Assembly (NCBI GenBank): GCA_045606425.1
Contig: JAZURV010000011.1
Coordinates: forward strand, 3,496-67,495
Direction of reading: 5' to 3'
Origin: Candidatus Enterousia sp.
Lineage (GTDB): Bacteria > Pseudomonadota > Alphaproteobacteria > Rs-D84
Length of the DNA: 64,000 nt
Of the stretch, positions 10,293 to 58,685 are shown piece after piece (positions within the stretch are counted from its first letter, which is position 1; each line of letters starts with the position of its first letter). Position numbers and translations under genes: made by a program. The notes below the pieces were generated by a model that worked only from the letters and a program-made list of their open reading frames with translations, searched no databases and was not told the origin of the DNA.

Positions 10293-10320
10293 ACACCGCC
10301 CAATCGGGCGGTGTTTTTTA
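10291..10320. terminator. bidirectional rho-independent terminator between convergent genes
   Basis: Perfect 8-bp stem ACACCGCC-caatcg-GGCGGTGT flanked by A and T runs. Confidence 0.75.
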
Positions 10321-10974
10321 ATTTCCACTTGGTGTGTTGAATGTCCAACCGACAAATATTTTCCCATTTATATGTTGTGCTTTCCGTGGGGTACGAATAT
10401 CACCACCATATGTGACCGAACCTGCATTATTTGCCGTGATGTCGGCAGTGTTCGCACTGTCCCATGTTATATTTATAACATTTCCAACACAGACATTGTT
10501 GGAAAGATGATATCCGTTTTCACATCCGTCAAATCCCTGTGTCGTTGTTTCGTTAAATGTAAATGTTCCACCAGGACAAACGCCATGCGATATACATGCA
10601 ACACATTCATCGACATTTGCCGGCAAATAATACCCCGATGAACACGTGTGTGAATTTGGCACATATTTTGCGTGTAATTTTGTTGGAAAATTGGTCGCAC
10701 AAATATTATTCATTGTTGTTTGTGGCACCAGATTAAAATTCAGACCCTGGAAAATGTCTGGATTAAAATTAAATGTTCCACCGAGACATGTAAAACCATT
10801 TGGACATGCAACGCACCCCAAAGTATTCGCCGGCAGATATTGTCCCACAGAACAAGTGTAAGAATTTGGTATGTACGCAGCATAATATTTATTTACCCCC
10901 GTATCACAAACATATTCTGCAAATACAGATTGTGTTATCAGCAATACCAACAAAAACGCAGAAATTTTTTTCAT
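10318..10974 (-). CDS. secreted Cys-rich repeat protein (YYLPAN...C..CP.G..C.GG.F.FN repeats) with C-terminal Listeria/Bacteroides-type (Flg_new) repeat
   Basis: Signal peptide, then two Cys-rich repeats. The C-terminal ITWDSANTADITANNAGSVTYGGDIRTPRKAQHINGKIFVGWTF is near-identical to the C-terminus of ORF 58686-59369. Start overlaps the upstream stop (TAATG). Confidence 0.7.
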   Translation of the reverse strand: MKKISAFLLVLLITQSVFAEYVCDTGVNKYYAAYIPNSYTCSVGQYLPANTLGCVACPNGFTCLGGTFNFNPDIFQGLNFNLVPQTTMNNICATNFPTKLHAKYVPNSHTCSSGYYLPANVDECVACISHGVCPGGTFTFNETTTQGFDGCENGYHLSNNVCVGNVINITWDSANTADITANNAGSVTYGGDIRTPRKAQHINGKIFVGWTFNTPSGN

Positions 10975-11768
10975 TATAAACCACCGACCTCTGGTCCCGC
11001 GATAAATTCGCCCGCACCCGCATTGGTAAAGAATTGTCCTGACACAGTATCGTACATACCCAAAACATTGTCACTGATGCGCTTTGCAGGGATAAGATTC
11101 ATCAACAAAGTTGTGCCGTCCGTGTCGTACATTTGCCAACTGTATAATTTTACATAATCCATTCCTGTTGCCGTCCCATCAGAGTTTGCGGCGAACAGGT
11201 ACATATTATTTGCGGTTTCAAACACATCGGATGTTTGTTGGTGAGAACCAGGTTCGTTGGTATATGTTGTGCCGTTAATATCTATATGAGACGTTGGGTT
11301 CCAGTCAATATCATAGATAGTATTCGCAGTAGCGTTAAATTTTTTTATTGTTCCATAATCTGTATCTGTGCCACTACGAGAATACCATGCTTTGTTGGTG
11401 CCATCGGTATACGGTATCCCAAGGTATTTGCCTTGCATCCAGTCACTGTATTCTTTTGACGACATAAGTGTGTATGGGCCAAACCGTGTCCACGCCACCT
11501 TCGTTTTATATGTGTAATCAGAACGAACCTTACGCCCAAGGTCAATATACTGTGTACCTGTGCTTTCAATATATTCCAGTTCTGTATACAACGCCCACCC
11601 TGCAAAACTGTATCCGTATTTTGCTGGGGCGACCGGGGGTGTGATATTATCACCGGCATCACATGTTGTTGTTTGATACAGCGAACCATCAACATACCAT
11701 TCAACACTGTGTGCAAATGCAGTTATGCAAACGAACACCAATCCAAATATAACAAAAAATTTTTTCAT
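10974..11768 (-). CDS. secreted protein: N-terminal Flg_new-type repeat plus divergent beta-rich C-terminal domain
   Basis: Start placed at MKKFFVIFG (GAGGGG RBS). The N-terminal ~60 aa are homologous to ORF 59372-60046 (VEWYVDGSLYQTTTCDAGDN...KYGYSFAGW). The C-terminus is unrelated to that paralogue. Confidence 0.7.
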   Translation of the reverse strand: MKKFFVIFGLVFVCITAFAHSVEWYVDGSLYQTTTCDAGDNITPPVAPAKYGYSFAGWALYTELEYIESTGTQYIDLGRKVRSDYTYKTKVAWTRFGPYTLMSSKEYSDWMQGKYLGIPYTDGTNKAWYSRSGTDTDYGTIKKFNATANTIYDIDWNPTSHIDINGTTYTNEPGSHQQTSDVFETANNMYLFAANSDGTATGMDYVKLYSWQMYDTDGTTLLMNLIPAKRISDNVLGMYDTVSGQFFTNAGAGEFIAGPEVGGL

Positions 11769-11978
11769 AAATCCCCTCGTTTTCACAAATCAAAAAACCA
11801 CCGGAAAAATTCAGGCGGTTGGAGGTTCAAGACTATATTACGAGAAATAGTGGGCTTATTTATATATATCGCCCCCTCCAACCAAGTTTAGTTGGAGGTT
11901 TTTTCTGTCCCCACGGACACCCGTAATTAGAGGTCTTGACACCCCGTCGACAGAATCCCCATCGACAAACCAATTATA
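11769..11978 (-). promoter_or_regulatory. promoter plus about 200-nt structured 5' leader with attenuator-like alternative pairings (leader L1)
   Basis: Minus strand: extended -10 TGATATAAT (11973-11978). Segments are 1 CCUCCAAC, 2 GGUUGGAGGG, 3 CCUCCAACCGCC, 4 GGUGGU plus a U run just before the RBS. Segment 2 can pair with 1 or with 3, and 3-4 forms the terminator. Confidence 0.45.
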
Positions 11979-12007
11979 TCAAAAAAATTTGCCCAGATAA
12001 ATAAAAA

Positions 12008-12028
12008 AATCGCCAATCGGCGATTTTA
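12008..12028 (-). terminator. rho-independent terminator of rpmH
   Basis: Minus strand: ATCGCCgattGGCGAT hairpin followed by a T7 run. Confidence 0.7.
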
Positions 12029-21491: not shown

Positions 21492-21566
21492 TGGCAGCCC
21501 CAACGGGAATCGAACCCGTGTTGCCGGAATGAGAATCCGATGTCCTGACCGCTAGACGATGGGGCC
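21492..21566 (-). tRNA. tRNA-Glu (anticodon CUC)
   Basis: Hand-folded cloverleaf: acceptor GGCCCCA/TGGGGCT, D-arm GTCT-AGCGGTCA-GGAC, anticodon arm TCGGA-TTCTCAT-TCCGG, T-arm ACGGG-TTCGATT-CCCGT, encoded CCA. Confidence 0.85.
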
Positions 21567-22607: not shown

Positions 22608-22877
22608 TTGTAAAAAATGTCTGTTTGTGATATAATACCTTTGAATCCAAGGGATTGGGTTCGGGGGCATGCTAAAGCCCACTGCATTCGGTGCGAAAGC
22701 ATCGTAATCTGATGTTATCGGTGTTTTTTGCACCGTTGTCATCCCTGACGTATGGTCGGGGGTTCGTTGGTTATAAAACAGGGATAACCCGAAAACCACG
22801 AAATCAGTAATGCAGTGATTTAGCAACTTCCCGACCGCTCTTTCTTGGGCGGTTTAATTTTTATTTAGGAGAGACAA
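22608..22877 (+). promoter_or_regulatory. promoter plus about 235-nt structured 5' leader with antiterminator/terminator (leader L2; homologue of 60047-60285)
   Basis: Promoter TTGTAA-17-TGaTATAAT. Stems: P1 GAAUCCAA-GGGA-UUGGGUUC (22643-22662), P2 GGGC/GCCC, P3 AUU-CGGUGC-GAAA-GCAUCG-u-AAU, P4 CGGUG/CACCG. GGUCGGG (22754-22760) is complementary to CCCGACC (22830-22836), which overlaps terminator ACCGC/GCGGU plus a U-rich tail (to 22863). Confidence 0.55.
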
Positions 22878-23828
22878 GTGAGAAAAATATTGTGCTTTTT
22901 ATGTTGTTTTGTATCGGTGGCATCTTATGGTGCAACAGACGATTTAATTGTTGAGGCACAAGATACTTTTAACGCCACCCAATTGGTTTGTTCTGGGATA
23001 TCGGATGAAATATCCCAAGTGTCTAATGTGTCAAAAATAAATACCGCAGTTACTGCTGTTGGAACAGTTGCTGCCACAGGTGCATTGTATGCTGGTATAC
23101 AAAAATCACAAGAAGAAAAAGAAATAGACGAATTAGTTGACCAAATATGTGCGGCAGGTGGTTGTACGCCAGAAGGCGTGGAATCGATGTCCGATGAAGA
23201 TTTTTTTAATAATGTTATGCAACCCATGGCGCAAATTGCTGAATTAAAAGAACACTTAAAGAAATCAAAAAATTTAGGTAATTGGCGTACAGGTTTAATG
23301 GCTGGAACGATTGGTACCAATGTGGCATCGGCAATTTTATCTGGTGTTAACAGAGACCAATCTGATTTAGTTCAGCATATTCAGGCATGTAATGAAGCAA
23401 TGAAAGCCGTTAATTCTATGTCTGACAAATTAAGACGACAGGGTATAAGCCCGTTGGAATATCCAGTTGTAAACAGATTGGACGGCATTAAAACATGGTG
23501 CAACAGCATAAATGTTTCAGATGTAGAAAAAATAGAAAAACGAATGACTGGCGTTATGGGGACTTCTATTGCTGGTGCAGTTATCGGTGTTGCAGGAACG
23601 GCAACCAGTGCGGCTGCAAATTCTGATAAATACATGGATGAACAAAACCGCATGAAATTGACCGAACAAGAAAGGAAAAAGAAAGATAATTTGAATACAA
23701 CTGCAAATATAATGGCTGGTGCAAATATCGTAACTGGTGTTGTCGAAACAGGGTTAAACATATCACTGATAAATTTGACTAAAAAATTGATAAAACAAGC
23801 CGAGCTATGTGAGGAGGTTTTTAAATGA
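22878..23828 (+). CDS. secreted hypothetical protein with Gly/Ala/Thr-rich zipper segments (paralogue of 2775-3680)
   Basis: GTG start after an AGGAGAG RBS; signal peptide. Motif blocks are shared with ORF 2775-3680. ATGA overlap with the next gene. Confidence 0.65.
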   Translation: MRKILCFLCCFVSVASYGATDDLIVEAQDTFNATQLVCSGISDEISQVSNVSKINTAVTAVGTVAATGALYAGIQKSQEEKEIDELVDQICAAGGCTPEGVESMSDEDFFNNVMQPMAQIAELKEHLKKSKNLGNWRTGLMAGTIGTNVASAILSGVNRDQSDLVQHIQACNEAMKAVNSMSDKLRRQGISPLEYPVVNRLDGIKTWCNSINVSDVEKIEKRMTGVMGTSIAGAVIGVAGTATSAAANSDKYMDEQNRMKLTEQERKKKDNLNTTANIMAGANIVTGVVETGLNISLINLTKKLIKQAELCEEVFK

Positions 23829-24763
23829 AAAAATACATAATAATGTCTTTGTTAATTTTTGTTCCGGCAATTGCTGTAGCAGGCGACCATTGTACAAATC
23901 CTGGTGAATATACAATAGATAAACGTTGCTATGTTACTGATGAACAAAAGTCGCAAAAGCCGTACAATGCCGTGGTAAAAGTTGAGAATCCTAACAAATA
24001 TAAGTACAACTGCACAGGGGTAATCATAAAAGGTGAAGACAATACGCCTTATTTGGTAACGGCAAAACATTGTGCTCGCCCAGCTGACACCTCAAAAGAA
24101 TTTTTTCAGCCAGAGAAAGTTGTTATATTATTGCAAGACGGTTCCCTTTATCTTACGGCAGAACCTTATTCTTTTGGACGCACCAGTGCAGAAAACTATA
24201 ACAAGAGAGACGATTGGGTAGTTTTTAAATTTAAAGACGAGGATAAAGAAAAATTAAAAAACCTTGCACTTGAACCAAAAGGAATAGAAAAGGTAACTCC
24301 AGACACATATAATCTTAATGCGCGGTTCGTGGGATATAGTGCTTTAAAAATCATGAGTGATGAAGAGATAAAACGCTTAAAAAAAGAATATGCAGAATAT
24401 ATGTTTAAGAGACATAATGAGCGTGTAAAAGAAGATGAATGGGGTGGCATAGAAGTCGTTACGTATATATTAGACGGAAATTGGCCAGAACTTACAAGGG
24501 ATGACGACTATAAGTTGAAAGTGTCTGATTGTATATATAAAGCTGGACGTTATGGTAGTGGTTGTCAAGGATGGGTGGGTAGTTATGGTGGACCTATTCT
24601 TGATGCAGACGGTAATGTGCTGGGAATTGTGACGCGCACTGACAAATATCGTATCGGTGGTTTTAAGCATGCAGAAGTAGGCAATAATGTAAATGTTGGT
24701 TTTGAGGAAGGTACCATTAGAATAAATAAGACAGGTTTACCGTCAACAGATGAAACGAAATAA
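23825..24763 (+). CDS. secreted trypsin-fold protein, possibly catalytically inactive (Ser position reads Tyr)
   Basis: GAGGAGG RBS and signal peptide. His motif LVTAKHC and Asp motif DDWVVFKF are present. The GDSGGP position reads GSYGGP (Tyr codon 24584-24586). Confidence 0.65.
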   Translation: MKKYIIMSLLIFVPAIAVAGDHCTNPGEYTIDKRCYVTDEQKSQKPYNAVVKVENPNKYKYNCTGVIIKGEDNTPYLVTAKHCARPADTSKEFFQPEKVVILLQDGSLYLTAEPYSFGRTSAENYNKRDDWVVFKFKDEDKEKLKNLALEPKGIEKVTPDTYNLNARFVGYSALKIMSDEEIKRLKKEYAEYMFKRHNERVKEDEWGGIEVVTYILDGNWPELTRDDDYKLKVSDCIYKAGRYGSGCQGWVGSYGGPILDADGNVLGIVTRTDKYRIGGFKHAEVGNNVNVGFEEGTIRINKTGLPSTDETK

Positions 24764-25939: not shown

Positions 25940-26012
25940 GGTTGGAGCGCACGGATTCGAACCATGATAAAGAGAACCAAAATCTCTTGTCCTACCATTA
26001 GACGACGCTCCA
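25939..26012 (-). tRNA. tRNA-Gln (anticodon UUG)
   Basis: Hand-folded: acceptor TGGAGCG/CGCTCCA, anticodon arm AGAGA-TTTTGGT-TCTCT, T-arm CATGG-TTCGAAT-CCGTG, discriminator A, encoded CCA. Confidence 0.9.
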
Positions 26013-42179: not shown

Positions 42180-44103
42180 TTTTTACAACATGTCCGTTCG
42201 GATATATCAACAACCCGTCGGTTAAAATTTTCCCATAACAACTTTCGGATTTGATATCAAAAACCGAAACGATAAAATCTGTGTTTTTGTCGCGACAAAC
42301 CTTTTCCATATTGTCCAGAACCGCAGTGAAATTTTGCATGTATGCCAAATTCCATTTCGGCGTTTTATAAACACAAAATCCGTGGTCGCATTTATATCGT
42401 GTGTTTTTATCTGGTTTTATTTCGTTATTAAATTCGTACCATGAATTAAACGCAAAATAGTGTTTTGATGCGCGTGATTTATTAAACTGTAATTTGCCGT
42501 CAACATTAAACGCGACCAATTCATGGTCGCCCGTGGCGTAAAACAAAGGTCGTGGTTGACATGCGTATATGGTGATTCCAACGGAAACAAAAACAGCACA
42601 CAAAACATAATTTACATTTTTCATAAAGAAATTTTTAGAATCTGGTTTTTCAATAATCATTAAAAATAAAAATCCGAAAACAACCAAAATTAAAACAGTG
42701 TTTGAAATATGCGGCATACTTAAATTCGCAAACGGTAAATTTGATATGTTTGTCGCGATGTTTAATGTGAAATTATAAATAGTGTCTGTGATATTTAATA
42801 AATAATGATAACCAAACAATGCGCAAATTGTGCCAACCATAACCAACGGCATAATTGCAATTGAAAATATCGGCAGCAATAAAATATTTCCAATCAAACC
42901 ATAAATCGGAACATGCCCAAAATGCGCGATGATAAATGGCAGTGTCCATATTGTCGCAATTATTGCGGTTTGTATGGATAAATAAACATAATGAATCGCG
43001 CGTTTAAAGAAACTGCGTTTTATATAATTGTTTTTGTTATCAAAAAACCAAATCAGTCCGAATATTGCTGCAAATGATAATTGGAAACCCGCATTCATAA
43101 TTGAAAAAGGATTTATTAAAAATATCACCAGAAACGCCAATGCTGCGTTGCGCAACGATAAAACACAGCGTCCAAAAAGTGTCGCGACAAAAACCAGGGT
43201 TGCCATTAAAAATGCACGCGTTGTTGCGACACTGACGCCGGATAAAAACAGGTAAAATACTAATCCGGACCAGGCACAAATTATCGCTGGATATTTTGCT
43301 GGGATTCGTTTCGATAACGGTGCAATCAAACGAAATAATAAATAAAACAGTGCAAATAACCACCCACCAATCAGTGTCATGTGAAAACCACTGATTGACC
43401 AGACATGTCCGATTCCCACAGATTTCCAAATGTCGCTGTCGTTTTCTGGCAAAACCTTTTTATATCCCAACACCAACGCGTCTGTTAAAACAGAATCTGA
43501 TTTGTTGTGGATAAATGTACGCAAATCCCCAGATGATTTTTGTTTTTTAATTTCATAGTTTTGGAAAAAACCTGTGGCAGAAATTTTATTAAAATATGCC
43601 CAACGCGCAAAATCAAAAGACGCCGGCGTATATTTCGCAGATGGGTGAAACAGCATCGCGTCCCCTGTAATGGTATCGCCAATGTCTGGTATGATATCGC
43701 CATCTTTGATTGAAACACGAATATTCAAATTTTTATCGGGCAAATCAGAATCGATTTGTTTCGCCGGCACAGACAACAATACGCGCGTTGAATCTGGTGT
43801 GAAATCTATGTCGCGCACAGTTGCACTGATTGGAACAAACCCGAACGAATCTTTAATTTGTGGCGTATCGATAAAGTGTGTAAATGACATCGCATAAAAG
43901 AACCCAAACGCAAATAAAGCAATCGCACGAATAAAAACATTTTTGTATCTGTAAATAATTCCACACAACAGTCCTGCAATAATAATTGGAAAACGAAAAT
44001 TTGGTTCTGCACCAACCGAAAAATAAAGCGCCGCCCCAAACGCCATAATAAATGGCACCCATAAAAACAAGTTTTTATACTGATTGTCCAGGAATTCTTT
44101 CAT
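42142..44103 (-). CDS. comEC: ComEC/Rec2-family DNA internalisation channel (no metallo-beta-lactamase domain seen)
   Basis: Start at the ATG at 44103. Polytopic, with the competence-domain block GHVWSISGFHMTLIGGWLF. The 3' end overlaps truA convergently by 38 nt. Confidence 0.8.
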   Translation of the reverse strand: MKEFLDNQYKNLFLWVPFIMAFGAALYFSVGAEPNFRFPIIIAGLLCGIIYRYKNVFIRAIALFAFGFFYAMSFTHFIDTPQIKDSFGFVPISATVRDIDFTPDSTRVLLSVPAKQIDSDLPDKNLNIRVSIKDGDIIPDIGDTITGDAMLFHPSAKYTPASFDFARWAYFNKISATGFFQNYEIKKQKSSGDLRTFIHNKSDSVLTDALVLGYKKVLPENDSDIWKSVGIGHVWSISGFHMTLIGGWLFALFYLLFRLIAPLSKRIPAKYPAIICAWSGLVFYLFLSGVSVATTRAFLMATLVFVATLFGRCVLSLRNAALAFLVIFLINPFSIMNAGFQLSFAAIFGLIWFFDNKNNYIKRSFFKRAIHYVYLSIQTAIIATIWTLPFIIAHFGHVPIYGLIGNILLLPIFSIAIMPLVMVGTICALFGYHYLLNITDTIYNFTLNIATNISNLPFANLSMPHISNTVLILVVFGFLFLMIIEKPDSKNFFMKNVNYVLCAVFVSVGITIYACQPRPLFYATGDHELVAFNVDGKLQFNKSRASKHYFAFNSWYEFNNEIKPDKNTRYKCDHGFCVYKTPKWNLAYMQNFTAVLDNMEKVCRDKNTDFIVSVFDIKSESCYGKILTDGLLIYPNGHVVKITNRRPWHNQHQ

Positions 44104-53975: not shown

Positions 53976-56366
53976 TTATTTCATGTTGAACGGTTCTATA
54001 CAGTCACCGTCCCCTGGTGGACAACATGCAAATGTGCCGTCGCCCATGTCGGTATATGTTTCGCCAGGGCAGCATCCATTGGTATCGGGGGTGATGCCGC
54101 CTTCACAGGTCAAAATTTCTTCTTCTGCTACAATTGGGTCGTTTGGTTTTGACCATGGATTTATTATATTTTCTTCTTCGTCATATTTTAATCCCAAGAC
54201 ATCTTGATTATATGCCTTGGTTTGTTCTGCATCACGATTATCAGCAGTGCCATAAGTTTGTTGGAATTTTTCCTGCTGATTTTGATTATATGCGTTTTGT
54301 TTTGCGGTGTTTATCGCCTGGTAATTTTGCGATTCACAATACATGTAAACTGTACGATAATCATAACCAGATTCTGCCCAGTTGCTTTTGATTGTCACTT
54401 TGCCATTTTTGTCTTCGCAATATTCTATCAAATTAAATGAACGAACCTGACCAATCCACGATGGGTCATTGGTGTTGATTTCTACTTTGTTTTTCAATTC
54501 TGCCCATTTACGACGCTGTTTGCTGCCATATGTTGTGAATGCACATTTTTTACCAGCGTTTTCATTTTCATCGCATGTGACAATCAAATCAACTGGTGAA
54601 AACACATTTATACGCGTGCCGGCGGCAATTGAAAATGGTGGTACAGTATTATCGATTGCATCAACAATCAGTTTCTGTGTGATTTTATTCCATGTATTTA
54701 TAATTTCTTGTTTTGCCATTTCAGATGAACGTATCGTACCCGATTGAACAACTGTATTGTTATCTAAATCGATTTGATTTATAACAGTATCTGCAATTGG
54801 GGCAATCATATTGACTGCTGCCGGAACCAAAGAAGTTAAAATTGGCATAACCATTTGTTCAACATAATCGGTGCTGCCGTGGCCTGGAACACCCATACGA
54901 CCCTGGGCATCGGCAGAATATGGGTCTTGATTTTCATCTTTAAAATTAAATTCAACACCATCTGGTCGAATAAATTGGTACCATTTAATATTCATACGAC
55001 CAAACGCCTGGTACGGTCCAGGCAGGTTGCCGTCCAGATATCCCATCAACAAAGTGCCAGTTGGTAATATTATTGTGCGTCCATCATCAGAATAAACATT
55101 TCGGTCAACCGTTGCGCGTACAGGAATGCTGTGATTTTTTGTTGGGTCACATCGACCACTAACAACTTTATTGCATCCATAAACACTGGGGTCTGCACGC
55201 ACTTCGGAAACAATTGTTGCCGGAATAGGTTTGAATTGACGCAATATAAATGTTCTGTCATACGGACGTGAAGAGGTTACGGATTCTGAATCAAATCCGG
55301 AACCTTTTAATGCGTCTTTGTCTATTTCTTTTCCTTCCCAATCACCAATAATTTTTCCCATTGTGCCAGTGCCGCCTATATCGCCCAACCATATTGCATT
55401 TTCGCCAAATGTACCCTTTTCATTTGGTGCAACAAAAGATTTTGGCGCGCCCAAATTTGGCAGGGTTAAATTACGCGAACGAACATTTCTGTAACCGATG
55501 TGGTCTGAATCTGTACCAATTTTTGACCCGTCGTCCAGTGATGTTATAACGCCTGTTGAAATATCGTATATTCCAGTTGGATTGGAACAATCCTTATCTG
55601 AAAATGGGTGGAAATAATTTGCACCGTGTTCTGGTTTAATCCAACCGATTTGACGCCCAGATGGGTCATAGCCCGGTATCGCAAATTCAGAACACTGTTC
55701 CGGTGGCAATGCAAACATATTGTCTGGTTCTTCGTCTTTGAATGGATTTTCAATCGCCACAGTTTTTATTTCTTCCACTGGTGTTTCATAAACTGGTTCT
55801 GGTTCCACCACTGCGACAGGTTCTGGTTGTGGTTCTGGTCGTGGTTCTGGTTTAGGTTCTGGACGCGGTTCCGGTTTTGGTTCAGGTTTTTTCCATGACG
55901 AATATTTGATATCAACCGTTTGGCTTTTTACAATTTCAGGTTGTGATTCAATATACCAATTCACAGTCAATGTTGCATTCGATTCAGGTTGTTCTGAACG
56001 CGGTTTGTATATAACCTTTATCATGCAATAATCAGACACTTTGTCATCGCAATTATTTGTTTCAGTGATGTCAGGGGTATTGATGTCTATGCTTTTTATC
56101 ATAACCGGTGCGTTGACAGTTAAACTGATGCTGTCGCTGATACTTTTTCCAACTTCGGTTTCTGTCAAATCTATGGTTTTTGGATTTGCGTCCATGAAAA
56201 TATTTTCGTTTATATTTTCGTTTGCGACATTGTCAGACGATTTATGACCCAACAACAGAACCAATAAAATGATAACAACAACAAACGCAGCCCCCAACAA
56301 TATCCATTGGATATGTTTAGGTGTGTTTTCTTTTATTTCTATAAATTGTTGTTTCAAACTTTTCAT
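53976..56366 (-). CDS. virB10: VirB10/TrbI-like type IV secretion protein with long insertions and a Cys-rich C-terminal extension
   Basis: N-terminal TM segment and Pro-rich (PEPKPEPRPEP) linker. TrbI-like core (...FGRMNIKWYQFIRPDGVEF...AAGTRINVFSPVDL). Follows virB8 and virB9. Confidence 0.7.
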   Translation of the reverse strand: MKSLKQQFIEIKENTPKHIQWILLGAAFVVVIILLVLLLGHKSSDNVANENINENIFMDANPKTIDLTETEVGKSISDSISLTVNAPVMIKSIDINTPDITETNNCDDKVSDYCMIKVIYKPRSEQPESNATLTVNWYIESQPEIVKSQTVDIKYSSWKKPEPKPEPRPEPKPEPRPEPQPEPVAVVEPEPVYETPVEEIKTVAIENPFKDEEPDNMFALPPEQCSEFAIPGYDPSGRQIGWIKPEHGANYFHPFSDKDCSNPTGIYDISTGVITSLDDGSKIGTDSDHIGYRNVRSRNLTLPNLGAPKSFVAPNEKGTFGENAIWLGDIGGTGTMGKIIGDWEGKEIDKDALKGSGFDSESVTSSRPYDRTFILRQFKPIPATIVSEVRADPSVYGCNKVVSGRCDPTKNHSIPVRATVDRNVYSDDGRTIILPTGTLLMGYLDGNLPGPYQAFGRMNIKWYQFIRPDGVEFNFKDENQDPYSADAQGRMGVPGHGSTDYVEQMVMPILTSLVPAAVNMIAPIADTVINQIDLDNNTVVQSGTIRSSEMAKQEIINTWNKITQKLIVDAIDNTVPPFSIAAGTRINVFSPVDLIVTCDENENAGKKCAFTTYGSKQRRKWAELKNKVEINTNDPSWIGQVRSFNLIEYCEDKNGKVTIKSNWAESGYDYRTVYMYCESQNYQAINTAKQNAYNQNQQEKFQQTYGTADNRDAEQTKAYNQDVLGLKYDEEENIINPWSKPNDPIVAEEEILTCEGGITPDTNGCCPGETYTDMGDGTFACCPPGDGDCIEPFNMK
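55794..55890 (-). repeat. imperfect short tandem repeats encoding the (PEPK/PEPR)n linker
   Basis: The plus strand shows reiterated ggttctgg(t/a)... units. Confidence 0.7.
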
Positions 56367-56375
56367 TTGTTCGCT

Positions 56376-57845
56376 TTATTGTATTCTGACCACATGGCAA
56401 CTGGCGCCGCTGAATTTCAACAATTGGTCGCACAGTCTTTGTGCAGTATCGATGTCGGTCAATGGCCCAATGCGTAAACGATACAGACGCGCAGTTGCGG
56501 AATCAGAACCCAAATCACCAACACCCTGTTCATCAACAGCAAAGAATACACTGTTTTTATATGGACTTAAAATTCCTTCGCCATCGTCGCCACTGAATTT
56601 TGCCAATAAACTGGTCCAGTAATCATTCAATGCCTTGACCGAAGTGTCAGATTTTAATTCAACTGCGACCCCAGTCTGATTGCTGGAAATCAGTGGAATA
56701 TTTGTTTGTGGCAAATATGCGCCAGCCGTTGTGCGTGCTGTTGGTATCATATTGACACCGTTGCCGCCGCCGTATACAGGATTTTGTTGGTCGTACACAT
56801 ACATTGGTGTTGCGCTGTAATCCATAATGCTTTGGTTTATGGCGTATTGTTCGTCGCCATACGCAATCGCATTCAAAGACTGGTTCGCGGCCAGTGATTG
56901 CGCAACATTTGCCTCTGCCAGTGCCATAACGGACGCGGTATCAGCAATCAGGAACGGTTTTGCGCGTTTTTTGATACAAACAATGCGTTGACCACTGCGC
57001 AGAACCATATCGCCAACAGCCTCTACAATCAACAAACGACCGTCTTCGCCATCTGTGCGGAATCCAACAGGGCTTTCGCCACCTTCGACCAAAAGTGATA
57101 CCACAGGGCGCTGGGTCATTGAAATAACTTTGTCACCAAAATCGATGTATGTAAATATGCGGTCACGCCATACGCGTTCGGGCGCAATAACATAATCGTC
57201 TGGGTTTGGAACAAAAATATCCAAATCAAAACGGAATTCAGACGGGTCAATTTTCATTGTTTTTATCCACCCGTAATCTTCGCCATCAACACCAACGGTA
57301 CTGGGTTGTTGTGCATTAGAATTCCCAAAGATAGAACCCATTGAACCACCTGCAACCGGTGCAGTATTTGTATTTGCAATTCTGGAATTTCCACCCAGTG
57401 AAACATCAACCTGGGAATATGTGATTTCGCTGGAATTCACAGGGTACGCACGCAGATAGAATATGTATGTGTTCCCAGATTGTCCGGTCACAATTAAATT
57501 CGTATCGTTACCGTTATTACCACTTGCGGGCGTTATGTACATTGTTTCGCTGCCCTTTAACGCTTTAACTTCGAATAATCCGTCGTTACCGGCAACTGCA
57601 TCGGCGATTTTTTCGCCATTTGGCAATGTCACCAATGTCGCCATGCCTGCGCGTGTTTTTATTGGTAACACAGTTCCAGTAGACCAGGTAAGGTTTGCAT
57701 ATCCTGGTTTTGTTGACCCCGTGGCCATGTTTGCGTTTGGATTATCCCACGCGGCCTGAAAAGTTGCTTCTGCATGTGCAGGAAACGCGCAACATAAAAC
57801 AGTCAATAAAGAAATACTAAATTTGCATGTTTTTACAAAATTCAT
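56376..57845 (-). CDS. virB9: VirB9/CagX/TrbG-like type IV secretion protein fused to a C-terminal SPOR-like domain
   Basis: Signal peptide. VirB9 N-domain pattern (TLVTLPNGEKIADAVAGNDGLFEV...NLIVTGQSGNTYIFYL) and C-domain (VGFRTDGEDGRLLIVEAVGDMVLRSGQRIVCI). The tail reads LYRLRIGPLTDIDTAQRLCDQLLKFSGASCHVV. Confidence 0.75.
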   Translation of the reverse strand: MNFVKTCKFSISLLTVLCCAFPAHAEATFQAAWDNPNANMATGSTKPGYANLTWSTGTVLPIKTRAGMATLVTLPNGEKIADAVAGNDGLFEVKALKGSETMYITPASGNNGNDTNLIVTGQSGNTYIFYLRAYPVNSSEITYSQVDVSLGGNSRIANTNTAPVAGGSMGSIFGNSNAQQPSTVGVDGEDYGWIKTMKIDPSEFRFDLDIFVPNPDDYVIAPERVWRDRIFTYIDFGDKVISMTQRPVVSLLVEGGESPVGFRTDGEDGRLLIVEAVGDMVLRSGQRIVCIKKRAKPFLIADTASVMALAEANVAQSLAANQSLNAIAYGDEQYAINQSIMDYSATPMYVYDQQNPVYGGGNGVNMIPTARTTAGAYLPQTNIPLISSNQTGVAVELKSDTSVKALNDYWTSLLAKFSGDDGEGILSPYKNSVFFAVDEQGVGDLGSDSATARLYRLRIGPLTDIDTAQRLCDQLLKFSGASCHVVRIQ

Positions 57846-57872
57846 GTCTTTTTCCTTACCTTTTCAAAATCT

Positions 57873-58577
57873 TTACCAAGATTTCACATCTGAATCAAGT
57901 GGGTCGCCATTTGCGAAACCTTTTCCGTCCAAAACATTGTATTGAACAACCTGAAGCCCCAACGGATTATCGCGCAGTTTTTCCAGGTTTTCTTCTGTTC
58001 CAGACATGTTTTCGTCCAGATTTGATTTTATCCTTATTTGTATCCTAAACTTTTTTGTTGTCACTTGTCCAGAGATATTTTTACAAACCCATGTAAAATT
58101 CACATTATATGTATCGTTGTTTAGCGGCAGTACAGGGTTGTCGTTATTCTGGCTGACGAAATTCACATCACACGAAATATTTGGAATCTGGTCACCGAAT
58201 GCGAATTCTTCATACAGGCGGGTTTTTGTAAAATCAGAAAAAACACTGGCATCAGACCAATTTTTAACAATCCGTGACCAATTTTTGCCAGTATATCCCG
58301 GGGCTGTTGATAATGTGTTTCGTGCGATTACATATTCGCGAACAAAACCATTTTTATAAAGGTTCATAATGTTTTGATTGCCACTGTCAGAATTCATTGG
58401 TGTGATAACCAAATTTGCAGAACGCGTTGGTGTGCGCAAAAAGAAAACCTCTGGCCGTTCCAACGGAATCATTTTTAACAAAGTGTACCCCATTGTTGCC
58501 AACACAACAATCCCCGTGGCCAGCACGAATACCAGTATTCTGGACATTAAAATGGGTGGTTCAATGACCTTTGCCAA
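57873..58577 (-). CDS. virB8: VirB8-like bitopic type IV secretion protein
   Basis: 234 aa with an N-terminal TM segment followed by an NTF2-size periplasmic domain. TTG start with an AGGAG RBS 6 nt upstream. Lies directly upstream of virB9. Confidence 0.55.
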   Translation of the reverse strand: MAKVIEPPILMSRILVFVLATGIVVLATMGYTLLKMIPLERPEVFFLRTPTRSANLVITPMNSDSGNQNIMNLYKNGFVREYVIARNTLSTAPGYTGKNWSRIVKNWSDASVFSDFTKTRLYEEFAFGDQIPNISCDVNFVSQNNDNPVLPLNNDTYNVNFTWVCKNISGQVTTKKFRIQIRIKSNLDENMSGTEENLEKLRDNPLGLQVVQYNVLDGKGFANGDPLDSDVKSW

Positions 58578-58685
58578 ATGCGACTCCTACACTTATGTAA
58601 GATGATTGTAGACAATTTTATTTATCCAGCGCAAGCAAAAAATAATGTTTTTTTATTTTGTCTTTTGTGTATGTGTGGGGGCTGG

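Follow-up and report, generated by a model that had tools for sequence, protein, structure and literature searches.

The stretch of DNA analyzed here (the window) comprises 64,000 nucleotides (nt) of contig JAZURV010000011.1 from Candidatus Enterousia sp. At 22643-22866 of its plus strand lies a promoter-proximal leader, L2, one of a family of leaders with two alternative folds, which separates a strong promoter from a small operon for secreted proteins. The promoter (22608-22636) combines a -35 element TTGTAA, a 17-nt spacer and an extended -10 element TGaTATAAT; it attains 10 of 12 matches in a promoter scan, with an upstream TG, and is predicted to be of the sigma-70 type with an extended -10. 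The promoter block can be aligned with that of other family members, including the second copy, L3. No plus-strand open reading frame (ORF) of at least 50 residues occurs between this promoter and the GTG codon at 22878, in agreement with a first-pass annotation of the window, which had described a strong promoter followed by a region with no credible ORF. The leader closes with a terminator (22833-22866) composed of the stem-loop GACCGCUC-UUUCUU-GGGCGGUU, detected by a terminator scan as a hairpin at 22833-22854, and the U-rich tail UAAUUUUUAUUU. A Shine-Dalgarno sequence AGGAGAG and the GTG start codon (22867-22880) were read directly from the sequence. The operon itself (22878-24763, plus strand) encodes a 316-residue signal-peptide protein and a 312-residue secreted trypsin-like peptidase (Pfam Trypsin_2, Trypsin).

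L3 is likewise promoter-proximal and occupies 60064-60249 on the minus strand. The window holds just two matches to the block TGAATCCAA(n)GGGA(n)TTGGGTTCGGG, at 22642-22665 (plus) and 60225-60250 (minus), and just two to CCCTGAC-n-GGTCGGGG, at 22743-22761 (plus) and 60139-60156 (minus); the expected number of matches in shuffled sequence is zero for either block. The alignment of L2 with L3 spans promoter, leader, and terminator, folding against shuffled sequences gives z = -6.0 for L2 and -4.0 for L3, and both leaders end in a hairpin and U tract 11-17 nt before a Shine-Dalgarno sequence and start codon. These data uphold the proposal that the two are homologous structured leaders. They precede different kinds of secreted-protein or secretion operons, as had also been noted: Pfam identifies in the L3 operon (53976-60046, minus strand) two secreted proteins, one with Listeria-Bacteroides repeats and one DUF7631-like, followed by VirB8, VirB9/CagX, and VirB10/TrbI. 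A third, divergent copy at 11783-11972 on the minus strand, presumably the one that the annotation had called L1, was found with a covariance model of the whole leader (R1; 30.8 bits, E ~1e-8). Its controlled genes (10318-11768, minus strand) encode a secreted Listeria-Bacteroides repeat protein and a DUF7631-like protein by Pfam.

Further copies are numerous. A scan of one genome per GTDB species with the pattern GGGTTCGGG-n55-85-CCCTGAC-n3-7-GGTCGGG returned 75 loci, about 20 of which were discarded as chance matches (G+C above 55%, Streptomyces, Acetobacteraceae coding regions, and others). The remaining loci gave 54 full-length homologous copies by nhmmer, nearly all from Candidatus Enterousia or from metagenome-assembled genomes (MAGs) of uncultured gut Alphaproteobacteria (rumen, horse, goat, human), and several MAGs yielded at least two copies even with this strict pattern. 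The organisms belong to the uncultured order Rs-D84 and have genomes of ~0.75-1.0 Mb (PMC12306168). R1, which has 233 positions and 61 pairs, recovered all of the genome-derived copies. A metagenome scan in which only the 5' hairpin P1 was fixed collected at least 120 stretches carrying the leader, and R1 produced 97 matches in the first 100 of these. The covariance-model search that the annotation had put forward as a check thus brings the family to more than 150 copies, from genomes and metagenomes of Candidatus Enterousia-type gut Alphaproteobacteria. Neither blastn of L2 against plasmids nor a pattern scan of viral contigs gave a match, and we found no description of the leader in the literature on Enterousia, RF32, microbiome structured RNAs, or orphan riboswitches. 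Two copies (L043 and L067) lie in an assembly labelled Bacteroides fragilis and one (L035) in an assembly labelled Oscillospiraceae; contaminated bins, rather than transfer, are the likeliest explanation.

The leader has two mutually exclusive folds, both supported by covariation. The first, termed the T-state, is modelled as a four-way junction closed by a long-range stem, with the CCCUGAC/GUCGGGG hairpin and the terminator both formed. It begins with P1 (22643-22662; GAAUCCAA-GGGA-UUGGGUUC), a 5'-terminal hairpin with a GNRA-type loop that is 99% paired across the family. The loop reads GGGA, GAGA, or GAAA in different copies, compensatory variants of the stem are found in L1, L013, L065, L066, and L070, and a conserved U-G pair within it fits selection at the RNA level. 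The 5' strands of the long-range stem follow at 22663-22687. They consist of a G-run, P2a (22664-22667), and the variable segments P2b (UGCUAAA, 22670-22676) and P2c (CACUGCAU, 22680-22687), which pair with segments ~130 nt downstream to close the junction; on the 3' side (22802-22825), P2c is AUGCAGUG at 22810-22817 and P2b is UUUAGCA at 22819-22825. P2c and P2b are the strongest-covarying helices of the family. The G-run can also enter a local hairpin, P2x (GGGC/GCCC, 22665-22668 with 22677-22680), which is 92% paired with double changes in two pairs and competes with P2a for the same bases.

The arms of the junction are P3, with an inner hairpin P3a, P4 (CCCUGAC/GUCGGGG), and P5, and the terminator hairpin follows directly. 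P4 here denotes the hairpin between regions 1 and 2, whereas the first-pass annotation used P3 for CGGUGC-GAAA-GCAUCG and P4 for CGGUG/CACCG, both of which fall within the present P3 region (22689-22735). This region can form either the nested P3 (CGGUGCGA/UUGCACCG) and P3a (GCAUC/GAUGU) or the two hairpins of the annotation, and each alternative is 97-99% paired across the family. The nested form is extended in L017 and L067 by paired insertions, and on this ground it is favored; L3-type copies, a short subtype in which two hairpins replace P3/P3a, are unable to form it. The earlier helix model is therefore accurate in that its P2, P3, and P4 are conserved and its helices are kept by compensatory changes family-wide. 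Its P3 and P4, however, are one of two conserved alternatives, and its P2 competes with the long-range stem P2a/b/c, which it had missed and which carries the strongest covariation. Region 1 (UCCCUGAC, 22742-22749) supplies the 5' arm of P4, a helix that is 98-99.7% paired and has the compensatory variants CCCCAAC/GGUUGGGG, CCUUGAC/GGUCGAGG, and CCUCCAAC/GGUUGGAGG. P5 and P5a (22764-22801) are formed in both states and hold the motif that recurs in sRNA-Xcc1. They comprise the conserved internal loops UUAUAAAACA and GAAAA and a small 3-bp hairpin (P5a, GGG-AUAA-CCC; a GNRA loop in the family), and every one of their pairs shows double changes.

Among the 55 genome-derived copies, 93.9% of T-state cells are standard pairs and 43 of the 61 pairs are changed on both sides; the independently ascertained metagenome set gives 94.4% and 50 of 61, counts that are somewhat inflated in that the T-state model guided the fitting of the underlying alignments (A5 and A6). 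Moving the partner strand by 1-3 positions lowers pairing to 35-50% in the genome set and 31-49% in the metagenome set. A MAFFT/RNAalifold analysis that preceded any model shows compensatory changes in 22 of 50 pairs. The pairs of P2c, P2b, P5, and P5a rank at the top of a mutual-information scan, in which the search for tertiary contacts or extra pseudoknots yielded only helix extensions, pairs between regions 2 and 3, and one P2x pair. The terminator stem also covaries across the family.

In the second fold, the A-state, region 2 (GGUCGGGGGU, 22754-22763) is modelled to pair with region 3 (ACUUCCCGACC, 22826-22836) in a helix that closes a three-way junction, composed of P5 and hairpin H, and sequesters the 5' arm of the terminator. 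Region 2 is the 3' arm of P4 in the T-state and the 5' strand of the antiterminator helix in the A-state. Region 3 contributes its CCC to the P2a G-run in the T-state and pairs in its entirety with region 2 in the A-state; its last four bases (GACC) are also the base of the terminator stem. Complementarity extends beyond GGUCGGGG and CCCCGACC by two bases on each strand, so that the pairing GGUCGGGGnn:nnCCCCGACC spans ~10 bp. Hairpin H (AAUCA 22802-22806 with UGAUU 22816-22820) is formed in the A-state by the stretch that holds the 3' strands of P2c and P2b; its pairing is 85-88%, and double changes occur in some places.

Across the family region 2 hardly varies, and it is the rare variants that carry the information. 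Regions 1, 2, and 3 read CCUUGAC, GGUCGAGG, and CCUCGACC in L013b; L065 and a metagenome subgroup have GGUCGGGUAU / AUACCCGACC; and in L1 they read CCUCCAAC, GGUUGGAGG, and CCUCCAACC, the P1 sequence being different as well. In each of L1, L013b, and L065 the three regions have changed together. The two end positions of region 2 also covary with region 3 (AG:CU, UG:CA, AU:AU), and GGGUAU:AUACCC is found too. The 2:3 helix is 99.5% paired in the genome set and 96.9% in the metagenome set; in the latter, 30 cells in five pairs are changed on both sides and slid controls are 34-58% paired. Region 2 thus has two evolutionarily maintained partners, which corresponds to classical 1:2 / 2:3 / 3:4 attenuator logic. 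A terminator/antiterminator competition had been proposed from L2 and L3, and covariation backs both partners of GGUCGGGG, the upstream CCCUGAC and the downstream CCCCGACC. That switch model was incomplete, as its antiterminated state had no three-way junction. When folded alone, the 3' halves of L2, L3, and L1 each adopt the three-way junction of the 2:3 helix, P5, and hairpin H. On a MAFFT alignment of 72 3'-domains that was fitted to no structure, the A-state is 94.4% paired, with double changes in 14 of 24 pairs.

The same elements can be located in the other two copies of the window, both on the minus strand. L3 with its flanks (60058-60285) contains the promoter (60257-60285), P1 (60228-60249), region 1 (60150-60157), region 2 (60137-60146), P5 (60125-60136), region 3 (60090-60098), and a terminator plus U7 (60064-60093); its hairpin, GACCACC/GGCGGUC, was read from the sequence and lies outside the loop limit of the terminator scan. 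L3 scores 105.8 bits with R1. L1 (11783-11981 with its promoter element) has a -10 element (11973-11981), P1 as GUCGA/UCGAC (11946-11966), region 1 CCUCCAAC (11891-11898), region 2 GGUUGGAGGGG (11873-11883), region 3 CCUCCAACC (11817-11825), and a terminator (11796-11820).

The geometry was counted in 122 distinct leaders. A U tract with 5-8 U in the 9 nt past the terminator stem is found in 110 of them, and a Shine-Dalgarno sequence with an ORF downstream is likewise present in 110. The start codon follows the stem at a median distance of 26 nt (quartiles 23-29), too little for a separate promoter to fit in. The leader therefore holds a fixed position with respect to promoter, terminator, and start codon. 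No start-codon column is kept in the family alignment that would indicate a conserved leader peptide; the AUG at 22669 and an AUG in the P4 loop are both missing from L3 and many other copies. The former opens a 12-codon ORF (AUG CUA AAG ... UAA, 22669-22707, plus strand) that most family members lack and that is probably not a leader peptide. The Shine-Dalgarno windows of the controlled genes are unusually rich in G, with GGGG in 53 of 110 versus ~4 of 44 other genes in the window. Such G-rich ribosome-binding sites, for example at 60050-60056 and 11772-11778, are complementary to the C-rich leader regions 1 and 3, and a translational layer of control is possible.

At gathering thresholds, Rfam 15 identifies no relevant family anywhere in the window, only tRNAs. 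At E <=10 on L2, L3, and L1 it returns noise apart from sub-threshold sRNA-Xcc1 (RF02221), for which L2 has no hit at all. Models such as T-box, ANTAR, and PyrR are not matched, except for a chance-level PyrR hit on the opposite strand of L1. The statement in the annotation that the leader belongs to no known RNA family is correct in so far as no Rfam gathering score is reached, and needs amendment for the 3' half. The RF02221 model aligns with the region 2-to-region 3 stretch of L3 (25.7 bits) and of two metagenome copies, L103 (36.7 bits) and L122 (33.3 bits), all below the gathering score of 53. The alignment covers the closing helix, the AUACAAuA motif, a 3-bp GNRA hairpin, a GAA, the second hairpin, and an ACC tail. 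In the other direction, blastn of the Rfam consensus retrieved loci in Neisseria, a Nitratidesulfovibrio plasmid, a Pseudomonas plasmid, and Aeromonas (Rfam scores 69-73 bits), and a covariance model built solely from the 3' domains of Enterousia-type leaders (R2, which gives 31.5 bits for L3) matches all four of these bona fide sRNA-Xcc1 loci over their full length, at 31-49 bits (E 3e-9 to 2e-5). Because the covariance-model matches run in both directions, the A-state domain is, as judged from sequence and predicted pairing, a remote homologue of sRNA-Xcc1. The two share the three-way junction, the closing helix GGYCGGG../..CCCGRCC, the AUAcAAuA arm, the 3-bp GNRA hairpin, the GAA, the second hairpin, and the ACC tail.

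Both kinds of element are multi-copy and are situated just upstream of same-strand accessory genes. In annotated records, sRNA-Xcc1 lies 40-55 nt upstream of same-strand genes for a BRO family protein, a hypothetical protein, an anti-repressor or ORF6N protein, and Ant, and in phage Aaphi23 it is positioned between a Q-like antiterminator gene and ant/holin. Published work places it before symE in Xanthomonas integron cassettes (bioRxiv 10.1101/2025.06.18.660453) and before the gene for an ORF6N protein in APSE phages (bioRxiv 10.1101/2020.03.17.996009), all seven Xylella copies are transcribed (PMC12189769), and Northern blot and rapid amplification of cDNA ends (RACE) define an RNA of ~88-100 nt (PMC2996969). 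One variant is present in 152 of 5426 complete E. coli genomes, and the E. coli prophage copies carry no RNA annotation from PGAP. The two also differ. The Enterousia-type leader stays below the 53-bit gathering score. Rfam models sRNA-Xcc1 as a stand-alone small RNA (sRNA) of 87 nt, whereas the leader promoter lies ~110 nt upstream of the Xcc1-like domain. Unlike sRNA-Xcc1, the leader ends in a canonical terminator with a U tract, and it possesses P1 as well as a conserved hairpin partner in region 1. Furthermore, sRNA-Xcc1 resides on mobile elements (integron cassettes, prophages, plasmids) with ant, BRO, ORF6N, or symE; the leaders of the window are chromosomal, and the family has expanded in Enterousia-type genomes to many copies, which are followed not by antirepressor or toxin genes but by genes for surface, secretion, and restriction-modification proteins.

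Six bona fide sRNA-Xcc1 loci were compared upstream of the annotated element: the four blastn loci, Stx phage P13374, and Aaphi23. In all six, the preceding 110-170 nt hold two blocks that are complementary, in nested order, to the second Xcc1 hairpin and the linker, and the sequences of these blocks are wholly different between loci. At L197 the 5' blocks CUUGAACA..GCACAAAG face the 3' blocks CUUUGUG..UGUUCAAG, and at L200, the Stx phage P13374 locus, GCUCAAAAC..GCAAGUAG face CUACUUGC..GUUUUGAGC. The per-locus shuffle statistics are only moderate (z -0.8 to -5.0); we nevertheless take the blocks to be putative equivalents of P2b and P2c because the same nested arrangement recurs with different sequences. 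On this evidence, sRNA-Xcc1 appears to be the 3' half of a cis-acting leader with two states, placed ahead of genes for antirepressors and toxins. Four of the six loci (L197, L199, L200, L201) also share a block of the form CCCG(U/A)CAG(A/C)C..G(C/U)(G/A)G-U7-(A/G)UG(U/C)CC, ~20-90 nt upstream of the element (for example, L201 1405-1449 and L200 1727-1770). It is preceded by a GCGG..CCGC hairpin in L197, L200, and L201, matches no Rfam family, and looks like an internal terminator hairpin. The isrK and C4 RNAs were considered as the identity of the sRNA-Xcc1 5' domain and gave no match.

Downstream of family leaders are genes for 126 distinct proteins, which belong to 66 unrelated families; roughly half of the proteins have a signal peptide or a lipobox. 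Among them are Listeria-Bacteroides repeat proteins, ankyrin proteins, lipoproteins, and autotransporters with Chlamydia PMP repeats. Others are the trypsin-like protease, VirB8/9/10, GT8 and RgpF glycosyltransferases, a GNAT acyltransferase, type II and type III DNA methylases, a ResIII helicase, a NERD nuclease, and candidate defence proteins. Within the window, the first two genes after L1 (10318-11768) and L3 (58686-60046) are paralogous pairs, each with a Flg_new repeat protein and a DUF7631-like protein, and here leader and cargo seem to have been duplicated together. The partial type IV secretion set that follows in the L3 operon (53976-58577, minus strand; VirB8, VirB9/CagX with a SPOR domain, VirB10/TrbI) is located on the chromosome beside a tRNA gene (60437-60507) and the nusG-rplK cluster; gyrA, nusG, and AcrB mark the window as chromosomal.

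Considering all of these data, we think it likely that L2 is one copy of a multi-copy, cis-acting, two-state attenuator of ~215-235 nt, in which termination is the default and a signal favors the Xcc1-like A-state. In the T-state, P1 would be followed by the four-way junction, closed by P2a/b/c and bearing the arms P3, P4 (CCCUGAC with GGUCGGGG), and P5. Region 3 (CCCCGACC) would be shared out between P2a and the stem of the intrinsic terminator, and RNA polymerase would stop ~26 nt short of the start codon. In the A-state, regions 2 and 3 would pair over ~10 bp to form the three-way junction of P5 and hairpin H, the G-run freed from P2a would be captured by P2x, and with the 5' arm of the terminator sequestered, transcription would enter the gene. 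We infer actual termination, its regulation, and the direction of the signal. Candidates for the trigger are a small ligand, an RNA-binding or antitermination protein, and, in trans, the terminated leader RNAs; a riboswitch is one option among several.

Rough consensus energies, which speak for this attenuator, are ~-22 kcal/mol for P4 with P2a and ~-14 kcal/mol for the terminator, against ~-32 kcal/mol for the 2:3 duplex with P2x before any pseudoknot or loop penalty. Several points weigh against it. P2b and P2c add ~15 bp, so that the full-length T-state is far more stable than the A-state. Since the T-state is the clear minimum, the default is probably termination and the signal probably acts by favoring the A-state as the RNA is transcribed. 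The pair counts for the T-state carry the inflation mentioned above. Pfam and PADLOC scans revealed no common function or pathway among the downstream genes, and cargo this diverse hints at no ligand and is unlike the usual gene set of a metabolite riboswitch. In the sRNA-Xcc1 relatives, the terminator-equivalent hairpin has no U tract, so the ancestral output may not be intrinsic termination. Finally, the title of Chen et al. 2011, as cited in PMC12189769, calls sRNA-Xcc1 trans-acting.

Rather than switching through its own pairings, the leader could serve as a nut-, put-, or qut-like site, or a loading site, for protein-mediated processive antitermination. A Q-like or N-like factor or a NusG paralogue would then read P1, the junction, or promoter-proximal DNA and make the polymerase terminator-resistant, the RNA pairings being secondary. 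The P1 sequence itself, beyond its pairing, is indeed almost invariant, and the cargo of type IV secretion system (T4SS), glycosyltransferase, autotransporter, and secreted-protein genes resembles the RfaH regulon of enterobacteria. The related Aaphi23 element, between the Q-like antiterminator gene and ant/holin, moreover occupies a position that in lambda corresponds to PR'-tR'. However, the concerted changes of regions 1, 2, and 3 and the 10-bp 2:3 helix indicate a selected competition at the RNA level, for which polymerase modification has no need. The sole NusG in the window is the housekeeping copy (secE-nusG-rplK context), no candidate factor was identified, and we regard this explanation as unlikely. 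There is a rather small chance that the functional product is a trans-acting sRNA, either the terminated RNA of ~215 nt or a ~90-nt 3' fragment like sRNA-Xcc1, and that the downstream genes are expressed by leaky read-through. Its targets could be other mRNAs or, as with IsrK, read-through leaders of its own family. The short RNA detected for sRNA-Xcc1 (PMC2996969), the transcription of the Xylella copies (PMC12189769), and the action of the terminated IsrK leader in trans on its own read-through isoform (PMC4825925) are in keeping with such a role, and regions 1, 2, and 3 are near-identical between copies, which makes inter-copy pairing possible. On the other hand, the P2b and P2c sequences differ wholly among copies yet stay paired, as expected of a structural RNA and not of a seed, and the fixed short distance to the Shine-Dalgarno sequence and start codon favors action in cis. 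A trans-acting product is compatible with the two-state attenuator, not exclusive of it.

A switch of translation or mRNA stability, in which the C-rich, anti-Shine-Dalgarno-like regions 1 and 3 mask the G-rich ribosome-binding site and P1 protects the mRNA from decay, is very improbable. It would explain the GGGG-containing Shine-Dalgarno windows described above, the CCUCC of regions 1 and 3 and the GGAGG within region 2 of L1, and the missing U tract after the 3:4 hairpin of the sRNA-Xcc1 relatives. Yet ~90% of Enterousia-type copies have a canonical U tract after the hairpin, and both modelled states already engage the C-rich segments in pairs inside the leader. High copy numbers per genome and a conserved unit that includes the promoter might instead suggest a dispersed DNA repeat, such as a miniature inverted-repeat transposable element (MITE) or a promoter cassette spread by recombination, with no RNA function. 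Dozens of base pairs are kept by double substitutions, however, the G-U pairs are specific to one strand, the leader keeps the same orientation and spacing relative to the gene that follows, and neither terminal inverted repeats nor target-site duplications accompany the leader. Covariation and fixed orientation effectively refute the repeat.

The proposed attenuator resembles transcriptional riboswitches in its covarying junction domain, conserved junction nucleotides, GNRA loops, and exclusive terminator/antiterminator pairings. It departs from them in that its cargo does not point to one metabolite or signal, in the lack of any sequence or structure match to the riboswitches in Rfam 15, and in that both states are elaborate conserved folds, not one aptamer and a simple alternative hairpin. 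In regulon style it comes closest to the riboswitch c-di-GMP-I (GEMM-I), of which a genome holds many copies in front of diverse surface and virulence genes; many copies before heterogeneous genes are common to both. Leader-peptide attenuators (trp, his, Phe leader) obey the same four-region 1:2, 2:3, 3:4 logic, but the present leader has no conserved peptide or start codon and its cargo is not biosynthetic. IsrK of the Salmonella Gifsy-1 prophage is likewise a promoter-proximal RNA with its own terminator. It lies on horizontally acquired DNA upstream of an antirepressor-type operon, and its terminated and read-through isoforms have alternative structures (PMC4825925). No homology to the leader was detected, the only isrK hits being chance-level matches on an unrelated terminator near L1, and IsrK acts through translation of a small upstream ORF (PMC4825925), whereas the leader family has no conserved ORF.

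A broader reading is possible though doubtful: sRNA-Xcc1 and the Enterousia-type leader may form one widespread class of bistable riboregulators, of which the 87-nt "sRNA" of Rfam is only the antiterminator or sensor half. This class would have expanded in Rs-D84/Enterousia into a master switch that answers to one global signal. If so, genomes below 1 Mb could possibly carry dozens of copies (three are present in this 64-kb window) that may govern host-interaction, secretion, and defence genes together, and the signal would be an ion, a second messenger, or terminated leader RNAs that act in trans as a pool. Regulators are few in Candidatus Enterousia and its relatives, whose genomes are smaller than ~1 Mb (PMC12306168). 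One leader before T4SS, autotransporter, ankyrin, lipoprotein, and restriction-modification methylase genes suggests RNA-based global control of accessory and host-interaction genes in uncultured gut symbionts. The link would also recast an "sRNA" that is widely annotated in Stx phages, integron cassettes, and plasmids, and E. coli phages would offer a tractable system for finding the trigger. What is new is the leader family, which is not in Rfam; the terminator/antiterminator principle is known, and one half of the leader is related to a known, poorly understood family. The interest lies in how far the family has expanded in reduced genomes, in how heterogeneous its regulon is, and in the re-reading suggested for sRNA-Xcc1.

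A few minor features deserve mention. A weak R2 match at 43398-43483 on the minus strand (14.1 bits, E 0.74) is probably noise. The related metagenome contig L137 has a sub-threshold match to Wolbachia sRNA 46 (RF02625) at 1387-1529 on both strands (45 bits versus a gathering score of 65), which suggests a palindromic repeat of the kind found in intracellular Alphaproteobacteria. Between gyrA and L1, immediately upstream of the promoter of the latter, a perfect 9-bp hairpin with A and T runs on both strands (12006-12027) is a predicted bidirectional terminator. A glutathione peroxidase gene and an HD-domain gene flank the small L2 operon, with tRNA genes ~1 kb to either side (21495-21566 and 25942-26012, both on the minus strand), a layout compatible with an inserted islet.

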